Shown here in pieces: positions 2,869 to 28,968 of a stretch of 64,000 nt of DNA (the first letter of the stretch is position 1; every line of letters begins with the position of its first letter). Both the position numbers and the translations under genes were made by a program. The notes below the pieces were generated by a model. It did no database searches and was not told where the DNA came from. It saw only the letters and a program-made list of their open reading frames with translations. The stretch comes from Archangium sp. (lineage in GTDB: Bacteria > Myxococcota > Myxococcia > Myxococcales > Myxococcaceae), in the NCBI GenBank assembly GCA_047600485.1, contig JASGKS010000001.1, positions 6,912,259-6,976,258 on the forward strand, read 5' to 3'.

Positions 2869-3791
2869 GGCACGTCCTGTGGCTGGTGTTGTGTGCGGGG
2901 TGCGTGACCGTGCCGCCGCCGCGTGCCGGGTTCGACGTCGCGCTGACGGTCGATGATTTGCCGCTCCATGGGCCGCTCAGCGCCGAGCGACCGCCGCTCG
3001 ACATCGCCGAACGTTTCATCGCGGTGCTGCGCGCTCACGGCGTGCGCGGGGTATATGGGTTCACCAACGGCTCGCGCGTCGAGCCAGGCACGGAGCCGGT
3101 GCTCACCGCGTGGGTGAAGGCGGGCCATCACCTGAGCAACCACACGTGGTCTCACGGGAGCTTGAACCGACTCTCCGCCGAGGAGTTCCTCGCCGACGCT
3201 TCGCAGAACGAGCAACTGCTCGCGAAGTACGAGCCCGATGCGACGGCGCGCTTGTTCTTTCGGTACCCGTTCTTGTTCGAGGGCGACACGCTCGAGAAAC
3301 GCGAGGCGGTGCGACGCGGGTTGTTCGAGCGCGGCTTCAAGCTGGCGCACGTGTCCATCGATGCTGACGACTGGGCGTTCAACCCGCCGTTCGTGCGCTG
3401 TTTGAAAGCCGGTGAGCGCGAGAAGGTGGCGGAGCTGCGGAAGTTGTTCATCGCCACGCACCTCGACGAGTGGGAACGCATGCGCGCGTTGAGCAAATCG
3501 CTCACGCAGCGTGACGACGTGCCGCAGGTGTTGCTGCTGCACCTCGGTGCGGGTGACGCGGAGTTTCTCGACGAGTTGCTGACGGCGTTCGAGCAACGCG
3601 GCGCGCGTTGGGTTTCGTTGGACCGTGCGCTGGCTGATCCGTTCTATGGAATTGATCCCGCGCTGGCGCAGAAGTCGGGCGCGGCGTTTCCGTATCGCGT
3701 GGCGAAGGCGCGCGCGGTGAGCGTCGATGCGCCCATCTACGCGCGCGGGCTCGAGGAACGGCTGGAGACGTTCTGCGAGGGCGCCGAGTGA
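2865..3791 (+). CDS. Polysaccharide deacetylase (NodB/PgaB-like), secreted or lipoprotein
   Basis: ATG overlaps the GT2 stop (ATGA). Signal peptide MRHVLWLVLCAGC; TVDDLP...HTWSHG NodB-type motifs. Confidence 0.75.
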   Translation: MRHVLWLVLCAGCVTVPPPRAGFDVALTVDDLPLHGPLSAERPPLDIAERFIAVLRAHGVRGVYGFTNGSRVEPGTEPVLTAWVKAGHHLSNHTWSHGSLNRLSAEEFLADASQNEQLLAKYEPDATARLFFRYPFLFEGDTLEKREAVRRGLFERGFKLAHVSIDADDWAFNPPFVRCLKAGEREKVAELRKLFIATHLDEWERMRALSKSLTQRDDVPQVLLLHLGAGDAEFLDELLTAFEQRGARWVSLDRALADPFYGIDPALAQKSGAAFPYRVAKARAVSVDAPIYARGLEERLETFCEGAE

Positions 3792-3816
3792 CCTAGTGCG
3801 CTGAGTCCTACCCCGG

Positions 3817-3859
3817 CCCTCTCCCCGCTGTCGCAGGGAGAGGGTGCTGAGCGCTCAGC
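3817..3859. repeat. REP-like palindromic element (CCCTCTCCCC-N-GGGAGAGGG) plus second hairpin GCTGAGCGCTCAGC between convergent genes
   Basis: Two inverted repeats read directly from the sequence; same family as the copies at 4679, 18284, 30163 and 31139. Confidence 0.5.
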
Positions 3860-4676
3860 GGCGCTTGATCAACAGCACTGCGCCGAAGACTGCTCCGAGC
3901 GTGAGAATGATGGTCGCTCCGCTCGCGACGTTGAGGTGGTAGCTCGCGATGAGACCGATGACCGAGGTCACCACGCCGATGATCAACGCCCAGGCTGCGA
4001 CTCCCGAGAGCGTCTTGCCGAGCATGCGCGCGGTCGCCGCGGGAATGACGATGAAGCTCGAGACCAGCACCACGCCGACCGTCTTCACGCTGACCACGAT
4101 GATGAGCGCCGTGAGGCCGAGCAGCAGATAGTCGAGCGCCGCGACGGGAACTCCGGACAGCGCGGCGAGGTCGGGGTCGAACGTCGCGTACGCGAGGCGT
4201 GACCAGGTCGCGAGCAGCGCGACGAGCGTGATGAGCACCACCACCGCCACCATCCACATGTTCTGCGGAGAGATGGCGAGGATGCTGCCGAAGAGGACGG
4301 TTTCGACGTTCACCGGTTTGGCGTTCACCGAGCGCAGGCCGAGGAAGAGGACGCCGAGCGCGAAGCTGACGGAGAAGAAGACTCCGGTGGCGACGTCGCC
4401 GCGCAGCTTCCCGCGCCGCAGCACGTAGACGATGCCCATCGCCACCGCGAGCGTGAACGGGAGCGAGACCCAGCCGGCTTGATCGACGCTGACTCCGAGG
4501 AAGAGGCCGAGGCCCAGACCGCCGAAGGAAGCGTGCGCGAGGCCATCGCCGAGGAAGGACAGGCCTCGCTGCACGACGAAGACGCCGATGAGCGCGCAGA
4601 GGCCGGCGACGGCGGCTCCGGCGACGAGGGCGCGCTGCATGAACTCGAGTGCGAGGGGCTCGGTGAGGAAGTTCAT
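3855..4676 (-). CDS. znuB: Metal (Zn/Mn) ABC transporter permease
   Basis: Polytopic membrane protein with a TroC/ZnuB-like sequence (MNFLTEPLALEFMQRAL...); last gene of the SBP-ATPase-permease operon. Confidence 0.7.
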   Translation of the reverse strand: MNFLTEPLALEFMQRALVAGAAVAGLCALIGVFVVQRGLSFLGDGLAHASFGGLGLGLFLGVSVDQAGWVSLPFTLAVAMGIVYVLRRGKLRGDVATGVFFSVSFALGVLFLGLRSVNAKPVNVETVLFGSILAISPQNMWMVAVVVLITLVALLATWSRLAYATFDPDLAALSGVPVAALDYLLLGLTALIIVVSVKTVGVVLVSSFIVIPAATARMLGKTLSGVAAWALIIGVVTSVIGLIASYHLNVASGATIILTLGAVFGAVLLIKRR

Positions 4677-20072: not shown

Positions 20073-20681
20073 TCAGTCGAGCAGCACACTGACGTCGAAC
20101 TCGCTGCCGCTGTCGCTCGGGTCCGCTCCGGAAATCCACACCCAGACCGTGCCGGCCTGGACCTGCTGAATCAGCGTCTCGCTGGCATCGATGGCGCCCG
20201 TGTCGGAGCAGGCCGCGCTGGTCGCTACCGCGCAGCTCGCGCCGGTGAAGAGCGAGATGACGGGGTCGAAGTGCACGTTGCCACCCGTGCCATGCGGCGT
20301 GACGGTGACGTGGAGCGCGCCCGCGACCGGAGCGACGATTTTGTAGACCACGTCCTTCGTCTTCTGCGCGCAGGTCGGCGTGACGCTCGGAGTCGCGAGC
20401 GAAGTGTCGGAGATGGACGTGCCGACGTAGTCCGTTCCCATCTGGGTGAGCGTGATGGTGCGCTGGTTGTCGCAGGTGTCGCCGTCGAAGCCCGCGCCTT
20501 CGCCGGTCGCTCCGCCTCCGCCCGTTGCGCCGCCGCCCGTGCCGCCACCGGTCGCGGTGCCTCCGCCGGTGCCTCCGCCGGTGAAGAGCCCGCCGCCACC
20601 TCCGGCGCCGGCGTCCTTTCCCGGGTTCATCGAGCCGCACGCGACGAGAGACAGCGAGAGGACCAGCACTGCGTTCCGCAT
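20073..20681 (-). CDS. Gly-rich lipoprotein (hypothetical)
   Basis: MRNAVLVLSLSLVACGS lipobox, a poly-Gly/Thr linker and a C-terminal domain. Confidence 0.5.
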   Translation of the reverse strand: MRNAVLVLSLSLVACGSMNPGKDAGAGGGGGLFTGGGTGGGTATGGGTGGGATGGGGATGEGAGFDGDTCDNQRTITLTQMGTDYVGTSISDTSLATPSVTPTCAQKTKDVVYKIVAPVAGALHVTVTPHGTGGNVHFDPVISLFTGASCAVATSAACSDTGAIDASETLIQQVQAGTVWVWISGADPSDSGSEFDVSVLLD

Positions 20682-20815
20682 TTCATGCTCCTGTTTTTTT
20701 CCGGCCGGGCGGCGCGGCGGAGCAATGCGCGTGCCTCGTGTCTCTCGTGCGCGCACCCCGCGCGAGTTGTCGGGAACAGGCGACAGGTGTCGTGCGCAGC
20801 CGACAGAATGCGCGC

Positions 20816-21265
20816 GTGAAATTCGACGACGCGTCCTGGCACTACGGCGGCAAATTTCCCAAAGGGCTGCCGAAGGAAAATGGCGGCACGCACATCGGTC
20901 TGTTCGTCGCGTGGTGCATCGAGCACGACCTCATCGGACGCAGGCACTTCACCGAGTCACGCAAACAAGTCGACCGCGTGCTCGCGCGGAAGATGACGGG
21001 CCGCGACTTTCTCTTCGAGGTGCTCGACGAGAAGTTCTGCGACGAGGACCTCGTGCCGCTCGGCAGAAAGTTCACGCGCGCCTACTTCAACGACGGCAAG
21101 TACATCGACCACTACCTGAAGACCTTCGGCGTGAAGGACGACGGCTCGGTCTACACGGTGAAGGACACCTGGGAGAACTACGAGCGGCTCAAGCCGGCCA
21201 TCGAGAAAGCGTTCGGCGCGTGGGCGAAGAAGAACCCGTTCGCGGCTCGCAAGAAGCGTCGCTGA
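20816..21265 (+). CDS. Hypothetical cytoplasmic protein (conserved FDDASWHYGGKFP N-terminus)
   Basis: Open frame with GC3 bias. Probable GTG start at 20816; the track ORF starts at 20738. Confidence 0.45.
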   Translation: MKFDDASWHYGGKFPKGLPKENGGTHIGLFVAWCIEHDLIGRRHFTESRKQVDRVLARKMTGRDFLFEVLDEKFCDEDLVPLGRKFTRAYFNDGKYIDHYLKTFGVKDDGSVYTVKDTWENYERLKPAIEKAFGAWAKKNPFAARKKRR

Positions 21266-22156
21266 TCAGCAGTGGCTCGCCGCGAAATTGCCGGCGATGA
21301 AATCAGCGAGCAACCGCACGCGCGCTGGCACGTACTTCGACGCGGGCATCACGAGGTGAACGCCACCGCCGCTGATGCTCCACTCGGGCAACACGCGCTC
21401 GAACGGCGGAGCACCCTTCTTCGCGCACGCCGACGTCATGAAGATGGGCATCAACCCGATGCCGGTGCCGCGCGCGGTGATGGCGCGCATGAAGCCGAAG
21501 TCGTCGACGCTCAACGCGCCGCGCACCGTCACTTCGCGCTCGTCGTCACGCCGCGAGAGCTTCAGCCGCGCCTTGCCCTGACGGCCGCGGAACAGAATCA
21601 GCTCGTGCTCTGCAAGGGCGTCGACGTTCCTCGGCGCGCCGTGCTTGCGCACGTACTCAGGCGTCGCGAACAGCCCGAGGTCCGACTGCGCGAGCTTGCG
21701 TGAGATGAGCGACGAGTCGTCGAGCCGACCCGCACGCAGCGCGAGGTCGATGCCTTCCTCGATGAGATTCACCTGGCGGTTGGTCACCACCACCTCGACG
21801 TGAATGTTCGGGTGGTCCTTCGAGAAGCGCGCGAGCAGCTCGGCCATCGGGTACGCGTCGTTGGGCAGTGAGAGCCGCACCACGCCGCTCGCGTCGTCGG
21901 TGGCGTGACCCACCTCGGCCTGCGCTTCTTCGAGCGCCGCGCGCGCTGCCTTCGCCCGCTCGTAGAACGCGCGACCCGCTTCGGTCAGCTCGAGTGAACG
22001 CGTGGTGCGCTGCAGAAGCTGCGTCTCGAGCTCCTTCTCCAGCGAAGTGACGGCGCGGCTCGCAGTCGACTTCGGCACGCCGAGCGACTTCGCGGCGGCG
22101 GTAAAGCTCCCTTGATCCACCACCTTGAGGAAGACGGGAACGCGGCTCCAATCCAT
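21266..22156 (-). CDS. LysR-family transcriptional regulator
   Basis: N-terminal HTH (FLKVVDQGSFTAAAKSLGVPKSTASR) and a LysR substrate-binding domain. Start taken at MDWSRV (ATG 22156). Divergent from the doxX-rSAM operon. Confidence 0.8.
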   Translation of the reverse strand: MDWSRVPVFLKVVDQGSFTAAAKSLGVPKSTASRAVTSLEKELETQLLQRTTRSLELTEAGRAFYERAKAARAALEEAQAEVGHATDDASGVVRLSLPNDAYPMAELLARFSKDHPNIHVEVVVTNRQVNLIEEGIDLALRAGRLDDSSLISRKLAQSDLGLFATPEYVRKHGAPRNVDALAEHELILFRGRQGKARLKLSRRDDEREVTVRGALSVDDFGFMRAITARGTGIGLMPIFMTSACAKKGAPPFERVLPEWSISGGGVHLVMPASKYVPARVRLLADFIAGNFAASHC

Positions 22157-22231
22157 GTTGCATGAATAGCAACAAAGCGTTCGAAACGCACAATCTAGTG
22201 CTGCTGGCGCAACGGCCTTATTCGTGCGCCC

Positions 22232-22666
22232 ATGACCAAATACCTCGCGCACCTTCCCCGCCTCTTCCTGGGCCTCGTCTTCACCGTGTTCGGCATCGCA
22301 GGGTTGTTTCACCTGATGCCGCAGCCGCCGCTCCCCGAGGGCATCGCCGGCACGTACATCTCCGCGCTCGGCGGCACGTACCTCTTCACGCTGGTGAAGC
22401 TCACCGAGGTGGTGGCCGGCGTGCTGTTCCTCGCCAACCGCTTCAGCGCGCTCGCCGCGATTCTCATCGCGCCGGTGGTGGTGAACATCTTCGCGGCGCA
22501 CGCCTTCGTGCTGCCCGGCGGTCTGGGCCTGCCCATCGCGCTCGTCGCCGCGCTGGTCTTCGTGGCCTGGCAGCGTCGTGAGGCCTACCGCCCGCTGTTC
22601 GTCGCGAAGACGCAGACGGCTGCGGCGGCTTCCGAGCCGAGCGCCCGCACGCTCGCGGCGGCCTGA
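22232..22666 (+). CDS. DoxX-family membrane protein
   Basis: About 140 aa with four TM helices. First gene of the operon with the rSAM enzyme (21-bp gap). Confidence 0.65.
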   Translation: MTKYLAHLPRLFLGLVFTVFGIAGLFHLMPQPPLPEGIAGTYISALGGTYLFTLVKLTEVVAGVLFLANRFSALAAILIAPVVVNIFAAHAFVLPGGLGLPIALVAALVFVAWQRREAYRPLFVAKTQTAAAASEPSARTLAAA

Positions 22667-22687
22667 TTCGTCTACAGTGCGCGGCTC

Positions 22688-23989
22688 GTGACTGCGCCGC
22701 GCCACACGCTCCGACTCGAGGCTGATCGCGCGCTGCTCTACGACCGCGTCGCGCATCAGTACTTCCCGCTCAGCGCCGGCGAGGCGTTCCTCTGCACCGC
22801 CGCTGCCGAGGTCGGGCTCGACGAAGCGACGCGCCTGCTCGCGCAGAAAATCGGCGACGACGACGCGAACGACTTTCGCGCGCAGCTCGAAGACGACGGA
22901 GCGCTGAACGAAAACGGCTTCACCGGCCGGCTCCTCGAGCAGCGCGACATCAAGGGTGCGTACGCCGCTCCGCTGGTGTGCCACCTGGGCGTGACGCTGG
23001 CGTGCAACTTCGCGTGCAACCACTGCTACTCGTCGAGCGGCCAGCGCGCGAAAGACGAGCTCACGCTCGACGACATCAAGGGCCTCGTCGATCAGCTCGT
23101 CGACATCGGCTGCATGAAGCTGGTGCTCGGCGGCGGCGAACCGTTCCTCCGCAAGGAACTGGCCGACATCGTCGCGTACGCCGATTCGCGCGGAGTCGAC
23201 TGCTTCGTCCACACCAACGCCTCGCTGGTGCGCGCTGAAGTCCTCGAGCGCCTCGCGAAGACGCCGCCCGCCTCACTCGCCGTCAGCCTCGACGGCCCCG
23301 ACGCGCACACCAACGACCGCGTGCGCGGACCCAAAGCGTTCGAGAAGACGATGAAGGGCCTCGAGGTGCTGCGCGCCAATTGGCCGCACGGCTTCAACCT
23401 CTCGGTCACCATCACGCCCGAGAACGCCACGCTCACACCGCAGCTCGTCGCGCTCGCGAAGGAACAGGGCGCCAACGTGTTGCTGCTGCGACCCGCGTAC
23501 CCCGCCGGCGAAGCGATGAAGGACACCTCGCTCATCTGCGACCGCGAGACGTTCGCGCGCGCCATCGACCTCGCACGGCCCGAAGCGAAGAAGCTCGGCG
23601 TCACGCTCGACGCGCCGCACCCGCATGAGCAGGGCGAGCCCGACTTCGAAGGCTTCGGCTGCGTCGCGGCGCGCGTGGTGCTCGGTGTCGACCCGCGCGG
23701 CAACGTCACGCCGTGCCTCAATCTCCCGGGCGGCTTCGACAGCGGCAACATCAAGGAGAAGAAGCTGCAAGACCTCTGGAAGAAGGGTCGCGGCTTCGTG
23801 CTGCTGCGCGCGCAGGAAGCGGGTCCTCAGTGCAGCACCTGCAAGCACTACGAGACCTGTCGCGGCGGCTGCCGCGTGCGCGCCCTCTATTCCGAGAACG
23901 GTCTCGGTGGCCCCGACAGTTGGTGTCACTATGAGCCGCGCGAAGTTTCGAAGCAGACCCGCCGCACACGCACAGGAGCAACACGATGA
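22688..23989 (+). CDS. Radical SAM/SPASM-domain peptide-modifying enzyme with N-terminal PqqD-like RRE
   Basis: CNFACNHC (Cx3Cx2C); GGEPFL; twitch/SPASM Cys cluster (CLNLPGG...CSTCKHYETCRGGCRVRA...WCHYEP). N-terminal segment of about 95 aa is RRE-like (YFPLSAGEAFL...). Confidence 0.8.
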   Translation: MTAPRHTLRLEADRALLYDRVAHQYFPLSAGEAFLCTAAAEVGLDEATRLLAQKIGDDDANDFRAQLEDDGALNENGFTGRLLEQRDIKGAYAAPLVCHLGVTLACNFACNHCYSSSGQRAKDELTLDDIKGLVDQLVDIGCMKLVLGGGEPFLRKELADIVAYADSRGVDCFVHTNASLVRAEVLERLAKTPPASLAVSLDGPDAHTNDRVRGPKAFEKTMKGLEVLRANWPHGFNLSVTITPENATLTPQLVALAKEQGANVLLLRPAYPAGEAMKDTSLICDRETFARAIDLARPEAKKLGVTLDAPHPHEQGEPDFEGFGCVAARVVLGVDPRGNVTPCLNLPGGFDSGNIKEKKLQDLWKKGRGFVLLRAQEAGPQCSTCKHYETCRGGCRVRALYSENGLGGPDSWCHYEPREVSKQTRRTRTGATR

Positions 23990-24306
23990 CGGTTCGACGA
24001 ACGGGCACTCGCACGCCGGTGTCCAGTGGTTGTGGTTCTTCTTCGACGCGCGGAACTTCGAAGCCGTCGCCGCGCAAGCCGGTCGCCACGGGCTGCGGCA
24101 CCTCGTCGAGCTCGGGCAGCAAGGGCTGGTCGGCGAAGACCGGCGGCAAGGTGAGCGACAAGGTCAGCCAGCGCAGCAAGGACCTGCTCGACAAGGCCGA
24201 GGGCAAGACCGGGCGTCGCACCACGTCGAGCGGCTGCGGCACGTCGTCGCCGAGCAAGCCGTCGCCGCACAAGCCCACTCCGAAGCCGACGCGCACGGGG
24301 TGCTGA
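23986..24306 (+). CDS. Small basic Ser/Thr/Pro-rich peptide with repeated GCG(S/T)SS motifs (candidate rSAM substrate)
   Basis: ATGA overlap with the rSAM stop. High GC3 in this frame. SGCGSSS, TGCGTSSSS, SGCGTSSPS and a C-terminal TGC. No signal peptide. Confidence 0.5.
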   Translation: MTVRRTGTRTPVSSGCGSSSTRGTSKPSPRKPVATGCGTSSSSGSKGWSAKTGGKVSDKVSQRSKDLLDKAEGKTGRRTTSSGCGTSSPSKPSPHKPTPKPTRTGC

Positions 24307-24307
24307 G

Positions 24308-24613
24308 ATGAACCAGCACCGACTGTCCCGCTTGAAGCGATTGGCGACGGGCGCAGCGTTGATCAGCTCCACGCTCGCGCTCGGCGAAGACGTCAAGGCG
24401 CCGCCCGTGAACCCGGGCCCGCCGACTCGCATGAACTCACCGGGCAAGCAGAAGCCGGTGGCGGTCGACGCGGGCGTCGTCGATGCGGGCGTGACCGAAG
24501 AACCGGTGAAGCCCGATGACGGCCCGCACGTGAACAGCCCGCCGCCGCAGAAGCCCATTGCGAAGCCGCGGCCGCCGAACGTGAACTCGCCGCCTCAGCC
24601 GACCACGAAGTGA
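24308..24613 (+). CDS. Secreted Pro-rich peptide with three (R/H/N)(M/V)NSP..QKP repeats
   Basis: Starts 1 nt after the stop of the preceding peptide. Signal peptide ...ALISSTLALG. High GC3. Confidence 0.5.
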   Translation: MNQHRLSRLKRLATGAALISSTLALGEDVKAPPVNPGPPTRMNSPGKQKPVAVDAGVVDAGVTEEPVKPDDGPHVNSPPPQKPIAKPRPPNVNSPPQPTTK

Positions 24614-24663
24614 ATCGAAGCTGACGTCAGGCCGCGGGTGTCGGCGCTGTCCGACCCTGCGCC

Positions 24664-25281
24664 ATGTCACCGTCGCTCCCCGCTCTCCGCGCCGCCCTTC
24701 GTGCTCGGCCACGAGACGCGGCGTTGCGCGCGGTGTTCGCCGATTTTCTGCTCGAGCGTGGCGACCCCAGAGGCCTCTTCATTCAGGCGCAGCGCGAAGG
24801 ACGCGTCGAAGAAGCGCAGCGCCTGCTCGAGAAATACCGCGTCCACTTCGTTCACCCGTTGCCGCATGGCGCTGACGTGGACTTCGTCGATGGCTTCGTC
24901 GACGCGTGGCGCACGACGCCCGACGAATTTCGCCGCGCGGGCAGAAGGATGTTGCGACACCTGCCGCTGCGCTCGCTCACCTTGAGCGGAGTGCGCCAGG
25001 TCGACCTCCAATACCTGCTCGCCTCGGAAGGTCTGGAGTGCGTCACCACGCTCGTGCTCCACCAGCTGCGCATCGGCGCGCTGCAGTTGCTGGCGAGCAA
25101 CGACTTGCCGCACGTGCGCGTGCTGCAGGTCTCCGGCGCGCTGATGGAATCGCAGCTCGACGCGCTGCCCGACACCGACGTCGCGCGCCGGCTGCGCAGA
25201 GCCGCGACGCCACCGACCCGCGGCCGCCCGTTCTTCTGGATCGACGAGCGCTTCGAGTCACCGTTCGCGCAGTTGGGCTAG
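24664..25281 (+). CDS. TIGR02996-like repeat-companion/LRR protein (short paralog)
   Basis: LRAVFADFLLERGDPRGLFI motif near the N-terminus. Confidence 0.5.
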   Translation: MSPSLPALRAALRARPRDAALRAVFADFLLERGDPRGLFIQAQREGRVEEAQRLLEKYRVHFVHPLPHGADVDFVDGFVDAWRTTPDEFRRAGRRMLRHLPLRSLTLSGVRQVDLQYLLASEGLECVTTLVLHQLRIGALQLLASNDLPHVRVLQVSGALMESQLDALPDTDVARRLRRAATPPTRGRPFFWIDERFESPFAQLG

Positions 25282-25294
25282 ACCTCGCGCTCGC

Positions 25295-26164
25295 GTGACG
25301 AGCACCATCTTCAGCCGCACCGCCGTTCCCGATGGAGACACGCTCGGGCTCACGCGCGAACACGAGCTCGTCGCGCAGCCGCGCAAGGGCACCATCGACT
25401 GGGCGTCGTTCAATCGCTCACAGTTCGATGAAGCGAGCCTCGAGACCGCGCGCACGTTGTGGAGTCACCGCGCCTTCACCGAGTTCCACTCGCTCACGCA
25501 CTTCTCGCAGCTCAGCTCACAGCTGCATCTGCTCGGCGCGCCGCTCGACTGGAGCGGTGCCTTCGCGCGCATGGTGAGCGACGAGGTACGCCACACCGAG
25601 CTGTGTCTGCGAATGGTCGAAGCGCTCGGCGGCTCGCGAGACCTCACGCTTCCTTCGCTCGACGGCGTTCATCAGACCGTTCCGCAGGGCACGCTCCGCG
25701 CGCACGTGCGTCGCACCGTCATCAGCGCGTTCTGCATCGGCGAGACGCTCTCGGGGCGCATGTTCAAGCGCTGCCTCGCGGGCGCGAACGTGCCGCTGGC
25801 GCGCGACGTGGTGACCGCCATTCTCGTCGACGAGACGTTCCACTCCGAGCTGGGTTGGGAATTGGGCGCGCTCCTGATGCGGCCCGACGAGGCGGTCGCG
25901 ACGGAAGTCGCCGCGCTCGAAGCCGAGCTGCCGAAGCTGTTCGCTGATTTTGCGCAGCAGTGTCTGGCGACGAAGAGCGCGGCCTGGGCGCGCGCGCAAC
26001 CCGAGTTCGACGACGGTCCCAACTTCGGCACCATGAGCACCGCGGGCTACGCACACGCCTTCTACGAGGGCATGGAGCACGACGTGGTGCCGGGCCTGGA
26101 AGCCATCGGACTGGGTCACGCGCGCGCAGCGTGGGAGCAATTCATCGCCACGCGCCGCTATTGA
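25295..26164 (+). CDS. Ferritin-like (di-iron, two ExxH) domain protein
   Basis: DEVRHTELCLRM and DETFHSELGWELG suggest di-iron carboxylate ligands. Start uncertain. Confidence 0.5.
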   Translation: MTSTIFSRTAVPDGDTLGLTREHELVAQPRKGTIDWASFNRSQFDEASLETARTLWSHRAFTEFHSLTHFSQLSSQLHLLGAPLDWSGAFARMVSDEVRHTELCLRMVEALGGSRDLTLPSLDGVHQTVPQGTLRAHVRRTVISAFCIGETLSGRMFKRCLAGANVPLARDVVTAILVDETFHSELGWELGALLMRPDEAVATEVAALEAELPKLFADFAQQCLATKSAAWARAQPEFDDGPNFGTMSTAGYAHAFYEGMEHDVVPGLEAIGLGHARAAWEQFIATRRY

Positions 26165-26371
26165 TCAATTCAAGCGCTTGCTGAGCGCGTCGAGCCGCTT
26201 CTTCAAGTCGGCCAGCGCCTCGGTGGTCGCCACCGACGCCGAGCTGAGCGCGCGCTCCAACTGCGGCTCGAGCTGTTCCCACTCACTGCGCACCTCCATG
26301 CCGGCGAGGTGAATCTTCAGCTTCAGCTCATCGCGCAACGACTTGAGGGCTTCGAGATTGGGGCTCTGCAT
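26165..26371 (-). CDS. Small coiled-coil protein (68 aa, hypothetical)
   Basis: Strong SD (GAAAGGAGA) 6 nt upstream of ATG 26371; MQSPNLEALKSLRDELKLKIH... Confidence 0.5.
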   Translation of the reverse strand: MQSPNLEALKSLRDELKLKIHLAGMEVRSEWEQLEPQLERALSSASVATTEALADLKKRLDALSKRLN

Positions 26372-26494
26372 GGTGAGTCTCCTTTCGACTGCGTGATGTT
26401 CCGCAGACACTTCAGGACTCGTGCCGACACCGCGCTTCGCGTGGTTGCACCACTCGACGGCGCAAACACGCCTCATCGCGCGAAAAGGCTGCGC

Positions 26495-27430
26495 TCAGTC
26501 GGAGTCGGTCATCGCCAGCACCGCGAGCCTCGCGTCGGGCCGCAGACACACCAGCCCCACGTCGAGCACCACGTGGGCGAACCAATCGCTGTCGCTCTCG
26601 AACTGCGCCCACTGGCACTGCTCGGCGAGCGCGTTCACCTCGTCGAACGAAGCGTTGTCGGCTGCTCCGGTGAGCGCGCGCAGAGAACGCCACGCGAGCA
26701 ATCTCCCGAAGGCCGCCGAGCGCGCCGCGACGTACGCGCCTCCACACGTCGCGAGTTGCAGCAACAACGCCATCACTTCGCGCGGCGTGCTGGCGCGCAT
26801 CTTCGGCGGTGTTCCCGCGGCGAGGCAGTCGAGCTTCAGGGGAAACAGCGCGAGCGTCTCGACTCGGAGCGGCGCGCGCTCGAGCTTGAACACGCGGCCT
26901 TCCCACGTCGAGTTGGGCGCGAGTGCTTCGTCGCTGAGCACCGACGCCATGACCCGCGCATCGCAGCTCTGCTCGACCGCCGCAGTGGCCCACGTGCCCG
27001 GCGAGCCGTTGACCGCCCAGTTCATGCCGTCGAACTCGAACCAGTTTCCGAGCGTGTCTCCACGGCGCGCCGAGGTGCGGATGCACTTCTCTTCGAGCGG
27101 CAGCACGCGCAAGGGCAGCGCCTTCAGTGGATGTTGCGACGGCAGGCGTTCCCAGAACGCGGTGACGAACGGCGAGCGCGCGACCTCGCTGCCACGCACC
27201 ACGCGCTCCTGAATCCAGCACGCGAAGAGGTCCTGCAGTGAAGGCTCGGGGCCGAACCACTCAAGCTCACGCTCCAGCATCGCGTCGTCTTGCGCGTAGG
27301 CGAGCAGCGCTCCCAGGTTGCGCGCCGGAGCATCGACCAGCGTACGAACGCCGCTTCGGTGCTGCTCGCTCTCTGGAGGCGTCTTCGCGAGTTCCAGGAA
27401 ACGCCGCAGCGCATCGGGCTGCTTCAGCAT
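26495..27430 (-). CDS. Hypothetical protein (start uncertain)
   Basis: The track ORF extends to 28279 but overlaps the 27631..28968 gene. No canonical in-frame start lies between 27430 and 27630. Confidence 0.4.
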   Translation of the reverse strand: MLKQPDALRRFLELAKTPPESEQHRSGVRTLVDAPARNLGALLAYAQDDAMLERELEWFGPEPSLQDLFACWIQERVVRGSEVARSPFVTAFWERLPSQHPLKALPLRVLPLEEKCIRTSARRGDTLGNWFEFDGMNWAVNGSPGTWATAAVEQSCDARVMASVLSDEALAPNSTWEGRVFKLERAPLRVETLALFPLKLDCLAAGTPPKMRASTPREVMALLLQLATCGGAYVAARSAAFGRLLAWRSLRALTGAADNASFDEVNALAEQCQWAQFESDSDWFAHVVLDVGLVCLRPDARLAVLAMTDSD

Positions 27431-27630: not shown

Positions 27631-28968
27631 TCAGAAGCCGACCACCCACGCGTTGATTTCGGTGCCCGAGTACGTCGTCGCGGTGCCGAAGGTGGTGGGC
27701 AGCGCAGTGGTGATGGTGAGCGAGCGGTACGCGGTGGTCGCGGTGTTGGTGCCGTGGAACACGCTGGTGTCGGTGCTGAAGTTGCTCATCAACCAGTACG
27801 TGCCCGCGGTGACGGTGGTCTGCGCAGTGGCTGGGATTTCGGTGCGGCCCGCAGTCGACGTGACGGTTGCCGTCGAGGCGACCAGCGTGCCCGGTGCTCC
27901 GGCGGAGTTCGTGTACAGCGCATAGCGCGCGGTGGCGCCGCTCGGAGCGCTCGAGAGATTGATGCCGAAGTGCGTGAGCGTGAACGTGGCCGGCACGGTG
28001 ATGGTGTGCCCGAGCAGATACGGCCCCTGGTGCGTGTTGGCGCTGCTGAAGGTGCCCGAGTTGCCGTAGCGCACCATGCCGCCGCCGCCGGTGCATTGAC
28101 CGGTGCTGCAGGTCTGCGTGCCGCTGCACACGTTGCACGTCGCTCCGTTGATGCCGCACGCCGCGAGCGTGGTGCCGGTCATGCACGTGCCGCTCGCCGA
28201 GCAGCAGCCCGCGCAGTTGGCCGCACTGCAGGTGGTGCTCACGCACTGATTGGTGGTGCACGTCTCGCCGCTGCCGCACGAGACGCAGGCGTCACCGCCG
28301 AAACCGCACGAGGCGTTGGTGGTGCCCGACAAACACGTGCCTCCCGAGTTGCAGCAGCCGGCGCAGTTCGCAGGGCTGCACGACGGAGGCGTCACGCACA
28401 GACCGTTCGAGCACGCGCGCCCGCCGGAGCACGCCTGGCAGAGGTTGCCGCCCGAGCCGCACGCCGCGGTGTTGTCGCCCGCCTGGCAGAAGCCGCCCGA
28501 GGTGCAGCAGCCGGCGCAGTTCGCGGGGCTGCAGGTCGCTCCGCCACCACCGGTCGGGCCGCCGCCACCGCCCGTCACTCCGCCGCCGCCGCCCGTGACG
28601 CCGCCACCGCCGGTCGTTCCACCGCCGGTCACGCCACCGCCTCCGCCCGTGACTCCGCCGCCTCCGCCCGTCGCTCCGCCGCCGCCGGTCGTACCGCCGC
28701 CACTTCCACCGCCGGTGCCGCCACCGCCTCCACCGCCCGCGAAAATCGGCGGCTGGCAGAAGCCGAAGTTGCACTGGTAGTTCGAGATGCACGCCTGGCA
28801 CATCGCGCCGCCGCTGCCGCACGCGGTCGGAAGCGAGCCGGGCTGACACGAGCCCGTGGCGTCACAACACCCGGTGCAGTTCGACATGGAGCACTTGTCC
28901 TTCGCGGGTCCGCACGAGACGACGAGTGAACCCAACGAGAGACAAACGACGAGCGGCAGAAATCGCAT
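27631..28968 (-). CDS. Lipoprotein with five tandem 8-Cys modules, poly-Gly linker and C-terminal beta-rich domain
   Basis: Signal peptide MRFLPLVVCLSLGSLVVSCG. Modules of the form CSxxNCxGCCxxxGxCxxGxxxxACGxxGxxCxxC....C. Confidence 0.65.
   Translation of the reverse strand: MRFLPLVVCLSLGSLVVSCGPAKDKCSMSNCTGCCDATGSCQPGSLPTACGSGGAMCQACISNYQCNFGFCQPPIFAGGGGGGGTGGGSGGGTTGGGGATGGGGGVTGGGGGVTGGGTTGGGGVTGGGGGVTGGGGGPTGGGGATCSPANCAGCCTSGGFCQAGDNTAACGSGGNLCQACSGGRACSNGLCVTPPSCSPANCAGCCNSGGTCLSGTTNASCGFGGDACVSCGSGETCTTNQCVSTTCSAANCAGCCSASGTCMTGTTLAACGINGATCNVCSGTQTCSTGQCTGGGGMVRYGNSGTFSSANTHQGPYLLGHTITVPATFTLTHFGINLSSAPSGATARYALYTNSAGAPGTLVASTATVTSTAGRTEIPATAQTTVTAGTYWLMSNFSTDTSVFHGTNTATTAYRSLTITTALPTTFGTATTYSGTEINAWVVGF

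Follow-up and report, generated by a model that had tools for sequence, protein, structure and literature searches.

Peptide B and the genes around it

The window, by which we mean the whole stretch of 64,000 nucleotides that was analysed, contains a same-strand array of six genes in the order DoxX-like gene, radical SAM (rSAM)/SPASM gene, peptide A, peptide B, TIGR02996-domain gene, and ferritin-like gene, separated in that order by gaps of 21, −4, 1, 50, and 13 nt. A promoter and terminator scan of positions 21900-26600 gave no promoter-like site and no predicted terminator inside the array. Because the gaps are short and no terminator was predicted, co-transcription of all six genes is plausible. 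The genes and features considered here, with the evidence for them, are as follows:

22688-23989, plus strand: rSAM/SPASM enzyme, 433 aa, with Pfam Radical_SAM and SPASM matches
23986-24306, plus strand: peptide A, a Cys-repeat peptide of 106 aa, likely precursor for the rSAM enzyme
22688-24306, plus strand: block formed by the rSAM/SPASM gene and peptide A, a proposed separate module and an indel relative to locus L001
24308-24613, plus strand: peptide B coding sequence, 101 aa plus stop (ORF, codon-position GC, homologues, dN/dS)
24308-24385, plus strand: signal-peptide-like region of peptide B, MNQHRLSRLKRLATGAALISSTLALG, aa 1-26 (alignments, dN/dS, AlphaFold helix)
24404-24424, plus strand: degenerate motif copy PVNPGPP, aa 33-39 (sequence)
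24428-24457, plus strand: motif copy 1, RMNSPGKQKP, aa 41-50, with N43 nearly invariant in the family alignment
24467-24490, plus strand: DAGVVDAG segment, aa 54-61 (sequence)
24527-24556, plus strand: motif copy 2, HVNSPPPQKP, aa 74-83, with N76 nearly invariant in the family alignment
24578-24607, plus strand: motif copy 3, NVNSPPQPTT, aa 91-100, lacking QKP
24664-25281, plus strand: TIGR02996-domain gene, 205 aa, between peptide B and the ferritin-like gene
25295-26164, plus strand: ferritin-like diiron-carboxylate protein of 289 aa lacking a signal peptide, peptide B's conserved partner across genomes

The full sequence of the peptide B protein is MNQHRLSRLKRLATGAALISSTLALGEDVKAPPVNPGPPTRMNSPGKQKPVAVDAGVVDAGVTEEPVKPDDGPHVNSPPPQKPIAKPRPPNVNSPPQPTTK. 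The TGA stop codon of peptide A ends at 24306 and the ATG of peptide B is at 24308, leaving the 1-nt spacing that an earlier reading of this DNA, made from its letters (the sequence-only reading), had reported. That reading had also described a secreted, Pro-rich peptide with NSP repeats and a DAGVVDAG segment, which is correct; its count of three NSP..QKP copies holds for the (M/V)NSP core but not for QKP, which is present in only two. When the mature part was shuffled 200,000 times, no shuffle contained three or more NSP. Ser is encoded by TCA, AGC, and TCG in the three copies, so the repeat is maintained at the protein level and does not stem from a recent DNA duplication. AlphaFold placed a single helix at aa 3-24 of peptide B and gave coil for all the rest (pTM 0.23).

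GC-rich DNA yields many long ORFs on both strands and peptide B is of low complexity, as would be expected if it were a spurious ORF, a compositional artefact of the genome. Against this, its codon-position GC content was 0.67/0.53/0.87, which is coding-like for a genome of 67% GC and shows the normal order of GC1 above GC2; dN/dS was below 1; and 48 unique homologues were found, each placed identically with respect to a conserved gene. Compared with the closest homologue, dN/dS was 0.35 overall, with 0.06 in the first 26 codons vs 0.40 in the remainder; the flanking genes gave 0.12-0.16. Peptide B is under purifying selection, and the identical protein is annotated in an Archangium sp. MAG, as found by protein search. 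The comparative data have already refuted the artefact reading, which we regard as negligible: peptide B is a genuine gene. Two minus-strand ORFs that overlap it (23929-24558 and 24437-24712) were rejected because their full-length codon-position GC was not coding-like in GC3, and an alternative plus-strand frame was ruled out by codon-position GC over the full length.

Direct sequence searching with peptide B recovered only four homologues; a profile search of 1.84 billion representatives recovered 23 clusters of 64-146 aa. The family comprises 48 unique sequences, uncurated, and peptide B matched the family HMM with E=3.9e-26. In alignments aa 1-26 formed the most conserved part, with the family pattern M-x-x-(H/R)-R-L-x-(R/K)-L-x-x-L-(A/T)-x-G-x-A-L followed by a hydrophobic stretch. 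The mature part is hypervariable and Pro-rich, with one to four copies (median three) of (H/R/T/Y/N)-(V/I/T/M/L)-N-(S/A/G)-P; a DA(G/A) motif occurs in 36 of the 48 members, and the C-terminus is basic. A conserved Cys-containing core motif was not found in the family, where the conserved motif is h-N-(S/A/G)-P. Two subgroups could be distinguished, a Myxococcaceae/Archangium type that includes the window peptide and a more distant group-2 type with the N-terminus MRxHRLxRLxxLTQGxALVGLG...AC. Pfam and NCBIfam scans of peptide B and 34 family members gave only weak compositional matches to Pro-rich regions of DnaX and TonB, the TonB matches occurring in one of the 34 at E values of 0.007-0.02. 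As peptide B stops after its last motif and has no C-terminal TonB domain, a TonB-like identity was rejected.

Two variant arrangements were seen in the family. One lipobox-bearing variant (L091 1018-1839 and L092 2136-2969; compared loci are designated by L numbers) carries between its motifs a His/Asp-rich insert, HDGDHDGDHHGDHHGEHAHHHDADH, which is suggestive of metal binding whether or not the peptide is an enzyme substrate. In L002, tandem peptide B paralogues of 104 and 87 aa (2616-2930 and 2932-3195) lie ahead of one ferritin-like gene.

The rSAM enzyme and its companion peptide

The rSAM protein of the window reached no NCBIfam equivalog cutoff; its best score, 189 bits, was to mycofactocin maturase, whose cutoff is 265. 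Its orthologue group contains about 70 proteins of 43-89% identity from Myxococcota and from related MAGs labelled Deltaproteobacteria or Pseudomonadota, and outside the group identity falls to about 33%, with MftC-like enzymes. We compared 14 genome loci (L003-L016) and 7 metagenome loci (L117-L123, some redundant), about 18-20 of which were distinct. At least 15 of these distinct loci had a peptide A-like ORF directly after the rSAM gene. These ORFs encode Ser/Thr/Lys/Pro-rich peptides of 89-154 aa in which (S/T)(S/T)GC(G/A) motifs are repeated three to five times and which nearly always end in ...R(T/S)(G/S)C; examples lie at L003 6320-6640, L005 5382-5672, L117 4009-4284, L118 2990-3346, L121 1933-2397, L013 6338-6790, and L014 6277-6684. 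Peptide A of the window matched no NCBIfam equivalog, and its codon-position GC (0.47/0.76/0.86) was unusual because of its composition. These comparisons indicate that the rSAM/SPASM enzyme has its true companion in peptide A.

The sequence-only reading had taken peptide B for the third gene of the rSAM operon and, among other options, for a second substrate or an exported carrier or partner of the rSAM/SPASM enzyme. By position the first of these claims stands, the genes being on the same strand with short gaps; by function it does not. The 1-nt distance from the peptide A stop, the lack of a predicted terminator, and the recurrence of the order rSAM, peptide A, peptide B at other loci would all suit a partner of the enzyme, and a lineage-specific link is conceivable in the three lineages where the genes co-occur. 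This order, however, was restricted to the window, L003 (a Myxococcaceae MAG, rSAM 84% identical), L005, and L122/L123 (Archangium, 89-91%), and the co-occurring loci are closely related, with rSAM proteins 84-91% identical. Peptide B was absent after the rSAM gene in L004/L118/L119 (82%), L120 (83%), L121 (78%), L117 (74%), and L006-L016 (43-64%), most of which keep peptide A, and it was present without any rSAM gene in L001, L002, and 25 metagenome loci. The usual cross-links made in peptides by rSAM/SPASM enzymes are Cys thioethers and C-C or C-O links to Trp, Tyr, or Phe, and by composition the window peptide B contains none of these four residues. Like precursors of the sactipeptide, ranthipeptide, or mycofactocin type, peptide B is encoded beside an rSAM/SPASM gene, directly after that gene and the likely precursor; unlike them, it contains neither Cys nor aromatic residues, varies independently of the enzyme across genomes, and bears an export signal. 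Peptide A fits the precursor role and peptide B does not. The co-occurrence of NSP-repeat peptides with the rSAM enzyme, which the sequence-only reading had named as its own check, thus came out against a functional tie, and a role for peptide B as substrate or partner of the rSAM enzyme has already been largely refuted by the comparative data and appears very improbable.

The arrangement at L001 suggests how the two sets of genes came to lie together. The LysR, DoxX-like, and TIGR02996 genes of L001 are 90-95% identical to those of the window, and its DoxX gene is followed, after a 42-nt spacer, by a peptide B gene (74% identical) with neither rSAM nor peptide A. The first ~28 nt of this spacer are common to the window, after which the window continues with the 1.6-kb rSAM and peptide A block and L001 with CCGCACAGGAGCCACAC before the ATG. 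The block is therefore an indel, and peptide B persists intact where it is missing. The three co-occurrences of rSAM and peptide B would fit a single ancestral juxtaposition. We propose that rSAM and peptide A form a separate RiPP-type module that was placed upstream of peptide B in one Archangium/Myxococcaceae sublineage.

Several other features of these loci were recorded. The window rSAM protein had no exact or near-exact copy in the protein search (best match 89%), unlike peptide B and the ferritin-like protein of the same MAG, both of which were matched at 100%; the rSAM gene may have been left un-called or flagged in the deposited annotation, though its ORF is intact. In L005 a gene on the minus strand (3115-3900), whose product has two LysM-like repeats and resembles lysozyme at its C-terminus, lies between DoxX and rSAM, and because this gene intervenes, the rSAM array of L005 cannot share a transcript with DoxX. 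In L117 an extra plus-strand gene of 260 aa (1971-2753), with a SPASM-domain match only, immediately precedes the rSAM gene and runs into the start of that gene. In the window, a plus-strand ORF of 175 aa (20738-21265) lies between a minus-strand gene for a Gly-rich, lipoprotein-like protein of 227 aa (20073-20756) and the LysR gene; it has no counterpart in L001, where the flanking genes are 64 nt apart, and is a second indel between the two genomes. On the minus strand at 27631-28968 is a gene for a predicted lipoprotein of 445 aa with a long Gly-rich linker of (T/V)GGGG repeats and about five Cys-rich modules of the form C-S-x-x-N-C-x-G-C-C-x(5)-C-x(9-10)-C-G-x-G-G-x-x-C-x-x-C, which looks like a myxobacterial Cys-repeat secreted protein.

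Pairing of peptide B with a ferritin-like diiron protein

The ferritin-like gene is two genes downstream of peptide B in the window, and a homologue of it lay just downstream in every context recovered for peptide B homologues. Scanning metagenome contigs with an alignment of the ferritin-like protein yielded 35 loci, whose ORFs were searched with the peptide-family HMM; in each of the 25 loci with at least 250 nt of upstream sequence, the ferritin-like gene was immediately preceded by a same-strand, peptide B-like ORF, which in one case was frameshifted. Together with the window, L001-L003, and L005, a peptide B-family ORF was therefore present upstream of the ferritin-like gene at 30 of 30 loci with enough sequence, directly adjoining in 27 and one inserted gene away in three (the window, L001, and L005). 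In the 27 directly adjoining loci the distance from the peptide stop to the estimated enzyme start was −16 to +15 nt, usually with the two abutting. When neighbouring ORFs from about 40 loci were compared all against all, the only recurring gene families were peptide B and the ferritin-like protein, and no other conserved neighbour was found beyond sporadic TIGR02996-domain genes. Two candidate Rosetta-stone fusions of peptide and enzyme, P0181 and P0184, proved to be a C-terminal repeat extension and a mis-called start.

The TIGR02996 gene of the window scored 36.5 bits against an NCBIfam cutoff of 29. It lies inside the pair only in the window, L001, and L005, being absent from that place in L002, L003, and the 25 metagenome loci, and is a lineage-specific insertion. 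TIGR02996-domain genes, with or without LRR repeats, recur beside the cassette (L001 3245-3862, L005 6121-6807, L002 964-2376, and L116 608-2011), between the pair members in three loci and upstream in L002. This recurrence could be due to chance, the family being highly paralogous in Myxococcota, or to a loose association.

We hold with high confidence, from the comparison of loci, that peptide B is partnered with the ferritin-like gene and independent of rSAM. Literature searches returned no description of this pairing, and the two-gene pair has no earlier description. Among the three options of the sequence-only reading, an unrelated secreted peptide co-transcribed with the rSAM system came closest; that reading overlooked the ferritin-like partner at 25295-26164. 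In the Archangium lineage the peptide B cassette has probably been joined into one transcription unit with the rSAM/Cys-repeat RiPP module, so that the genes of both would now be co-transcribed.

The 289-aa protein is annotated in its source as a "ferritin-like domain-containing protein" and has more than 365 homologues of 55-78% identity in Myxococcota, including Polyangiales and Labilithrix. No signal peptide was found on it. The residues E63, E97-x-x-H100, E150, and E180-x-x-H183 were invariant in 38 homologues, and the AlphaFold model (pLDDT 91, pTM 0.89) shows the four-helix-bundle core that, with E, ExxH, E, ExxH ligands, characterizes the ferritin-like superfamily. The model has a full catalytic-type diiron site, and its fold is closest to those of substrate-oxidising enzymes. 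Matches to Pfam AurF (PF11583) were weak, occurring in 28 of the 38 homologues with a best E value of 1.2e-6; the window protein itself had no match at E<=0.1 and did not reach the family threshold. Searched against PDB sequences, the profile found only AurF, at E=0.17, and no detectably related solved structure. On the ligands, the model, and the AurF matches, we consider the protein a divergent diiron (or Mn/Fe) carboxylate oxidase or oxygenase that is probably catalytic. Ferritin-like diiron oxidisers include the AurF/CmlI-type enzymes, ADO, PaaA, and R2lox; the known members, to our knowledge, act on small molecules or acyl carriers and not on ribosomal peptides, and the sequence similarity of the window protein to the AurF/CmlI type is marginal.

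Predicted export of peptide B and its proposed relation to the diiron enzyme

A Sec signal peptide consists of an n-region with positive charge, 10-15 hydrophobic residues that form the h-region, and small residues at −3 and −1. By inspection all three elements are present in peptide B: the n-region MNQHRLSRLKR has four basic residues (R5, R8, K10, and R11) and is followed by a 14-residue hydrophobic stretch, LATGAALISSTLAL, and then by A-L-G ahead of E27. The predicted signal peptidase I site after A-L-G lies 1-2 residues from the lipobox Cys of distant relatives. In all 23 group-2 members the h-region ends with a Cys at about position 26-32, which in 22 of the 23 is the sole Cys; it aligns with D28 of the window peptide, a placement expected of lipoproteins, although many of the boxes are non-canonical, for example Q-L-A-C. 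The window peptide and its Myxococcaceae/Archangium subgroup have no Cys and show an A-x-(G/A) signal-peptidase-like site instead. The presence of this Cys in every group-2 member supports real export of the family, and from the peptide's own sequence together with these lipobox-bearing relatives we consider export of peptide B very likely.

A Tat-type signal, by which a folded, metal-loaded ferritin-like protein would be co-exported bound to the peptide, would account for a partner without a signal of its own and for a conserved, Arg-rich N-terminus that includes RR in some members (MNDRRL...). The twin arginine is not conserved, however, and for this we rejected a Tat signal: HRL is the commonest form, and the residues after it do not match S/T-R-R-x-F-L-K. 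The mature peptide, moreover, is disordered, with no evident docking domain. Co-export of this kind is in our judgement scarcely credible.

In the model that we favour, with a probability of roughly 0.6, peptide B is an exported, disordered peptide that serves as the dedicated partner, and probably the substrate, of a cytoplasmic diiron oxygenase and not of the rSAM enzyme. Peptide B would be made with a Sec-type signal, which in most relatives is a lipoprotein signal peptide ending in Cys, and would be bound in the cytoplasm, before export, by the signal-less diiron enzyme, perhaps through the conserved N-terminal segment HRLxRLxxL...G.AL. The enzyme would then oxidatively modify the repeated h-N-(S/A)-P motifs, after which the peptide would be exported and its signal peptide cleaved, to leave a disordered, Pro-rich product of about 75 aa, periplasmic or extracellular and, in the lipobox relatives, lipid-anchored. 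Several properties of the pair are typical of a precursor and its tailoring enzyme. The two genes are obligately paired, their stop and start codons abut, and no third gene is conserved; a well-conserved enzyme stands beside a hypervariable peptide whose mature part conserves only a short motif, in variable copy number; tandem peptide paralogues occur; and the N-terminal region is under tighter constraint than the mature part. Neither a recognition domain nor a partner of the RRE type was evident in the two-gene cassette. We know of no ferritin-like diiron enzyme that acts on a ribosomal peptide, and literature searches found no ferritin-like or AurF enzyme acting on ribosomal peptides, nor one paired with lipoproteins in myxobacteria. 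Enzymatic modification of peptide B, taken as a separate claim, is tentative, and we give it somewhat less than an even chance.

The conserved pairing and translational coupling would also fit a partnership in which peptide B is not a substrate, and this is the main rival to our model. Peptide B might be exported unmodified and share a process with the ferritin-like protein, such as the handling of metal or oxidative stress; alternatively, it might serve as a membrane or periplasmic tether or as a regulator, the pairing then reflecting co-regulation or a transient complex. The linkage data fit such a partnership equally. The predicted compartments of the two proteins differ, one having no signal and the other a signal or lipobox; the mature part is Pro-rich and disordered like the spacers that span the periplasm, with weak compositional matches to the Pro-rich region of TonB; and the variant of L091 and L092 has its metal-binding-like insert. 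A non-substrate role leaves unexplained, however, why the sole conserved feature of the mature part is a short motif, why its copy number varies, and why tandem paralogues accompany one enzyme gene, and it sits poorly with a full catalytic-type diiron site in a fold closest to substrate-oxidising enzymes. We consider a non-substrate partnership in an envelope, metal, or redox process unlikely, though a serious contender.

The favoured model, in which peptide B is probably a substrate, has parallels in two known systems. In bufferins, Sec-signal-bearing BufA precursors are modified in the cytoplasm by an iron enzyme, the MNIO BufB, together with BufC; modification precedes export and the peptides act in the periplasm (PMC11626156). 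By analogy, Sec or lipoprotein export is compatible with a precursor-peptide model for peptide B. The bufferin signal peptide is, however, dispensable for modification (PMC11626156), so that a conserved signal peptide is no proof of a leader role. Bufferins and the present pair are both widespread, conserved small cassettes, but the bufferin enzyme is an MNIO/DUF692 TIM barrel whereas that of the pair folds as a ferritin-like four-helix bundle of the diiron-carboxylate type. A DUF2063-type partner is lacking, and a Pfam and NCBIfam scan of seven neighbouring proteins detected neither DUF692 nor DUF2063. The core of peptide B has a conserved h-N-(S/A)-P in place of Cys, and its mature part is predicted to be disordered, in contrast to a folded mini-protein. 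DAG-RiPPs are substrates of ChrH-related MNIO enzymes and have lipoprotein signal peptides (PMC13056109). In most peptide B relatives, likewise, the signal peptide ends in a Cys, a feature that suggests lipoprotein-pathway processing, and the gene adjoins that of an iron enzyme. The enzyme superfamily and the motif are not the same, however, and in the window copy and its Myxococcaceae/Archangium group the Cys is lost and the peptides resemble signal peptidase I substrates. Judged by sequence, the pair thus resembles bufferins and DAG-RiPPs but belongs to neither, having no MNIO enzyme and no Cys motif.

The furthest extension of our model is that the pair represents a new class of exported, modified ribosomal peptide, with the first ferritin-like diiron oxygenase to act on a ribosomal peptide and with the invariant Asn or its neighbour oxidised in the one to four h-N-(S/A)-P motifs before export, which we think decidedly doubtful. 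Possible products would be β-hydroxy-Asn or N-hydroxy (hydroxamate-like) groups, through which the peptide would bind metal in the periplasm.

These results correct the boundary of the cluster, in that the rSAM system consists of rSAM and peptide A only, which matters for mining or expressing it. If peptide B and the ferritin-like protein are substrate and enzyme, they would extend the recently recognised use of the general Sec/lipoprotein pathway by RiPP-like peptides, known so far from MNIO enzymes and Cys chemistry. A member of the ferritin-like diiron superfamily would then act on a motif centred on Asn, in a two-gene system that is directly testable. If their partnership is not enzymatic, the pair would still be a widespread, unannotated cassette specific to Myxococcota.
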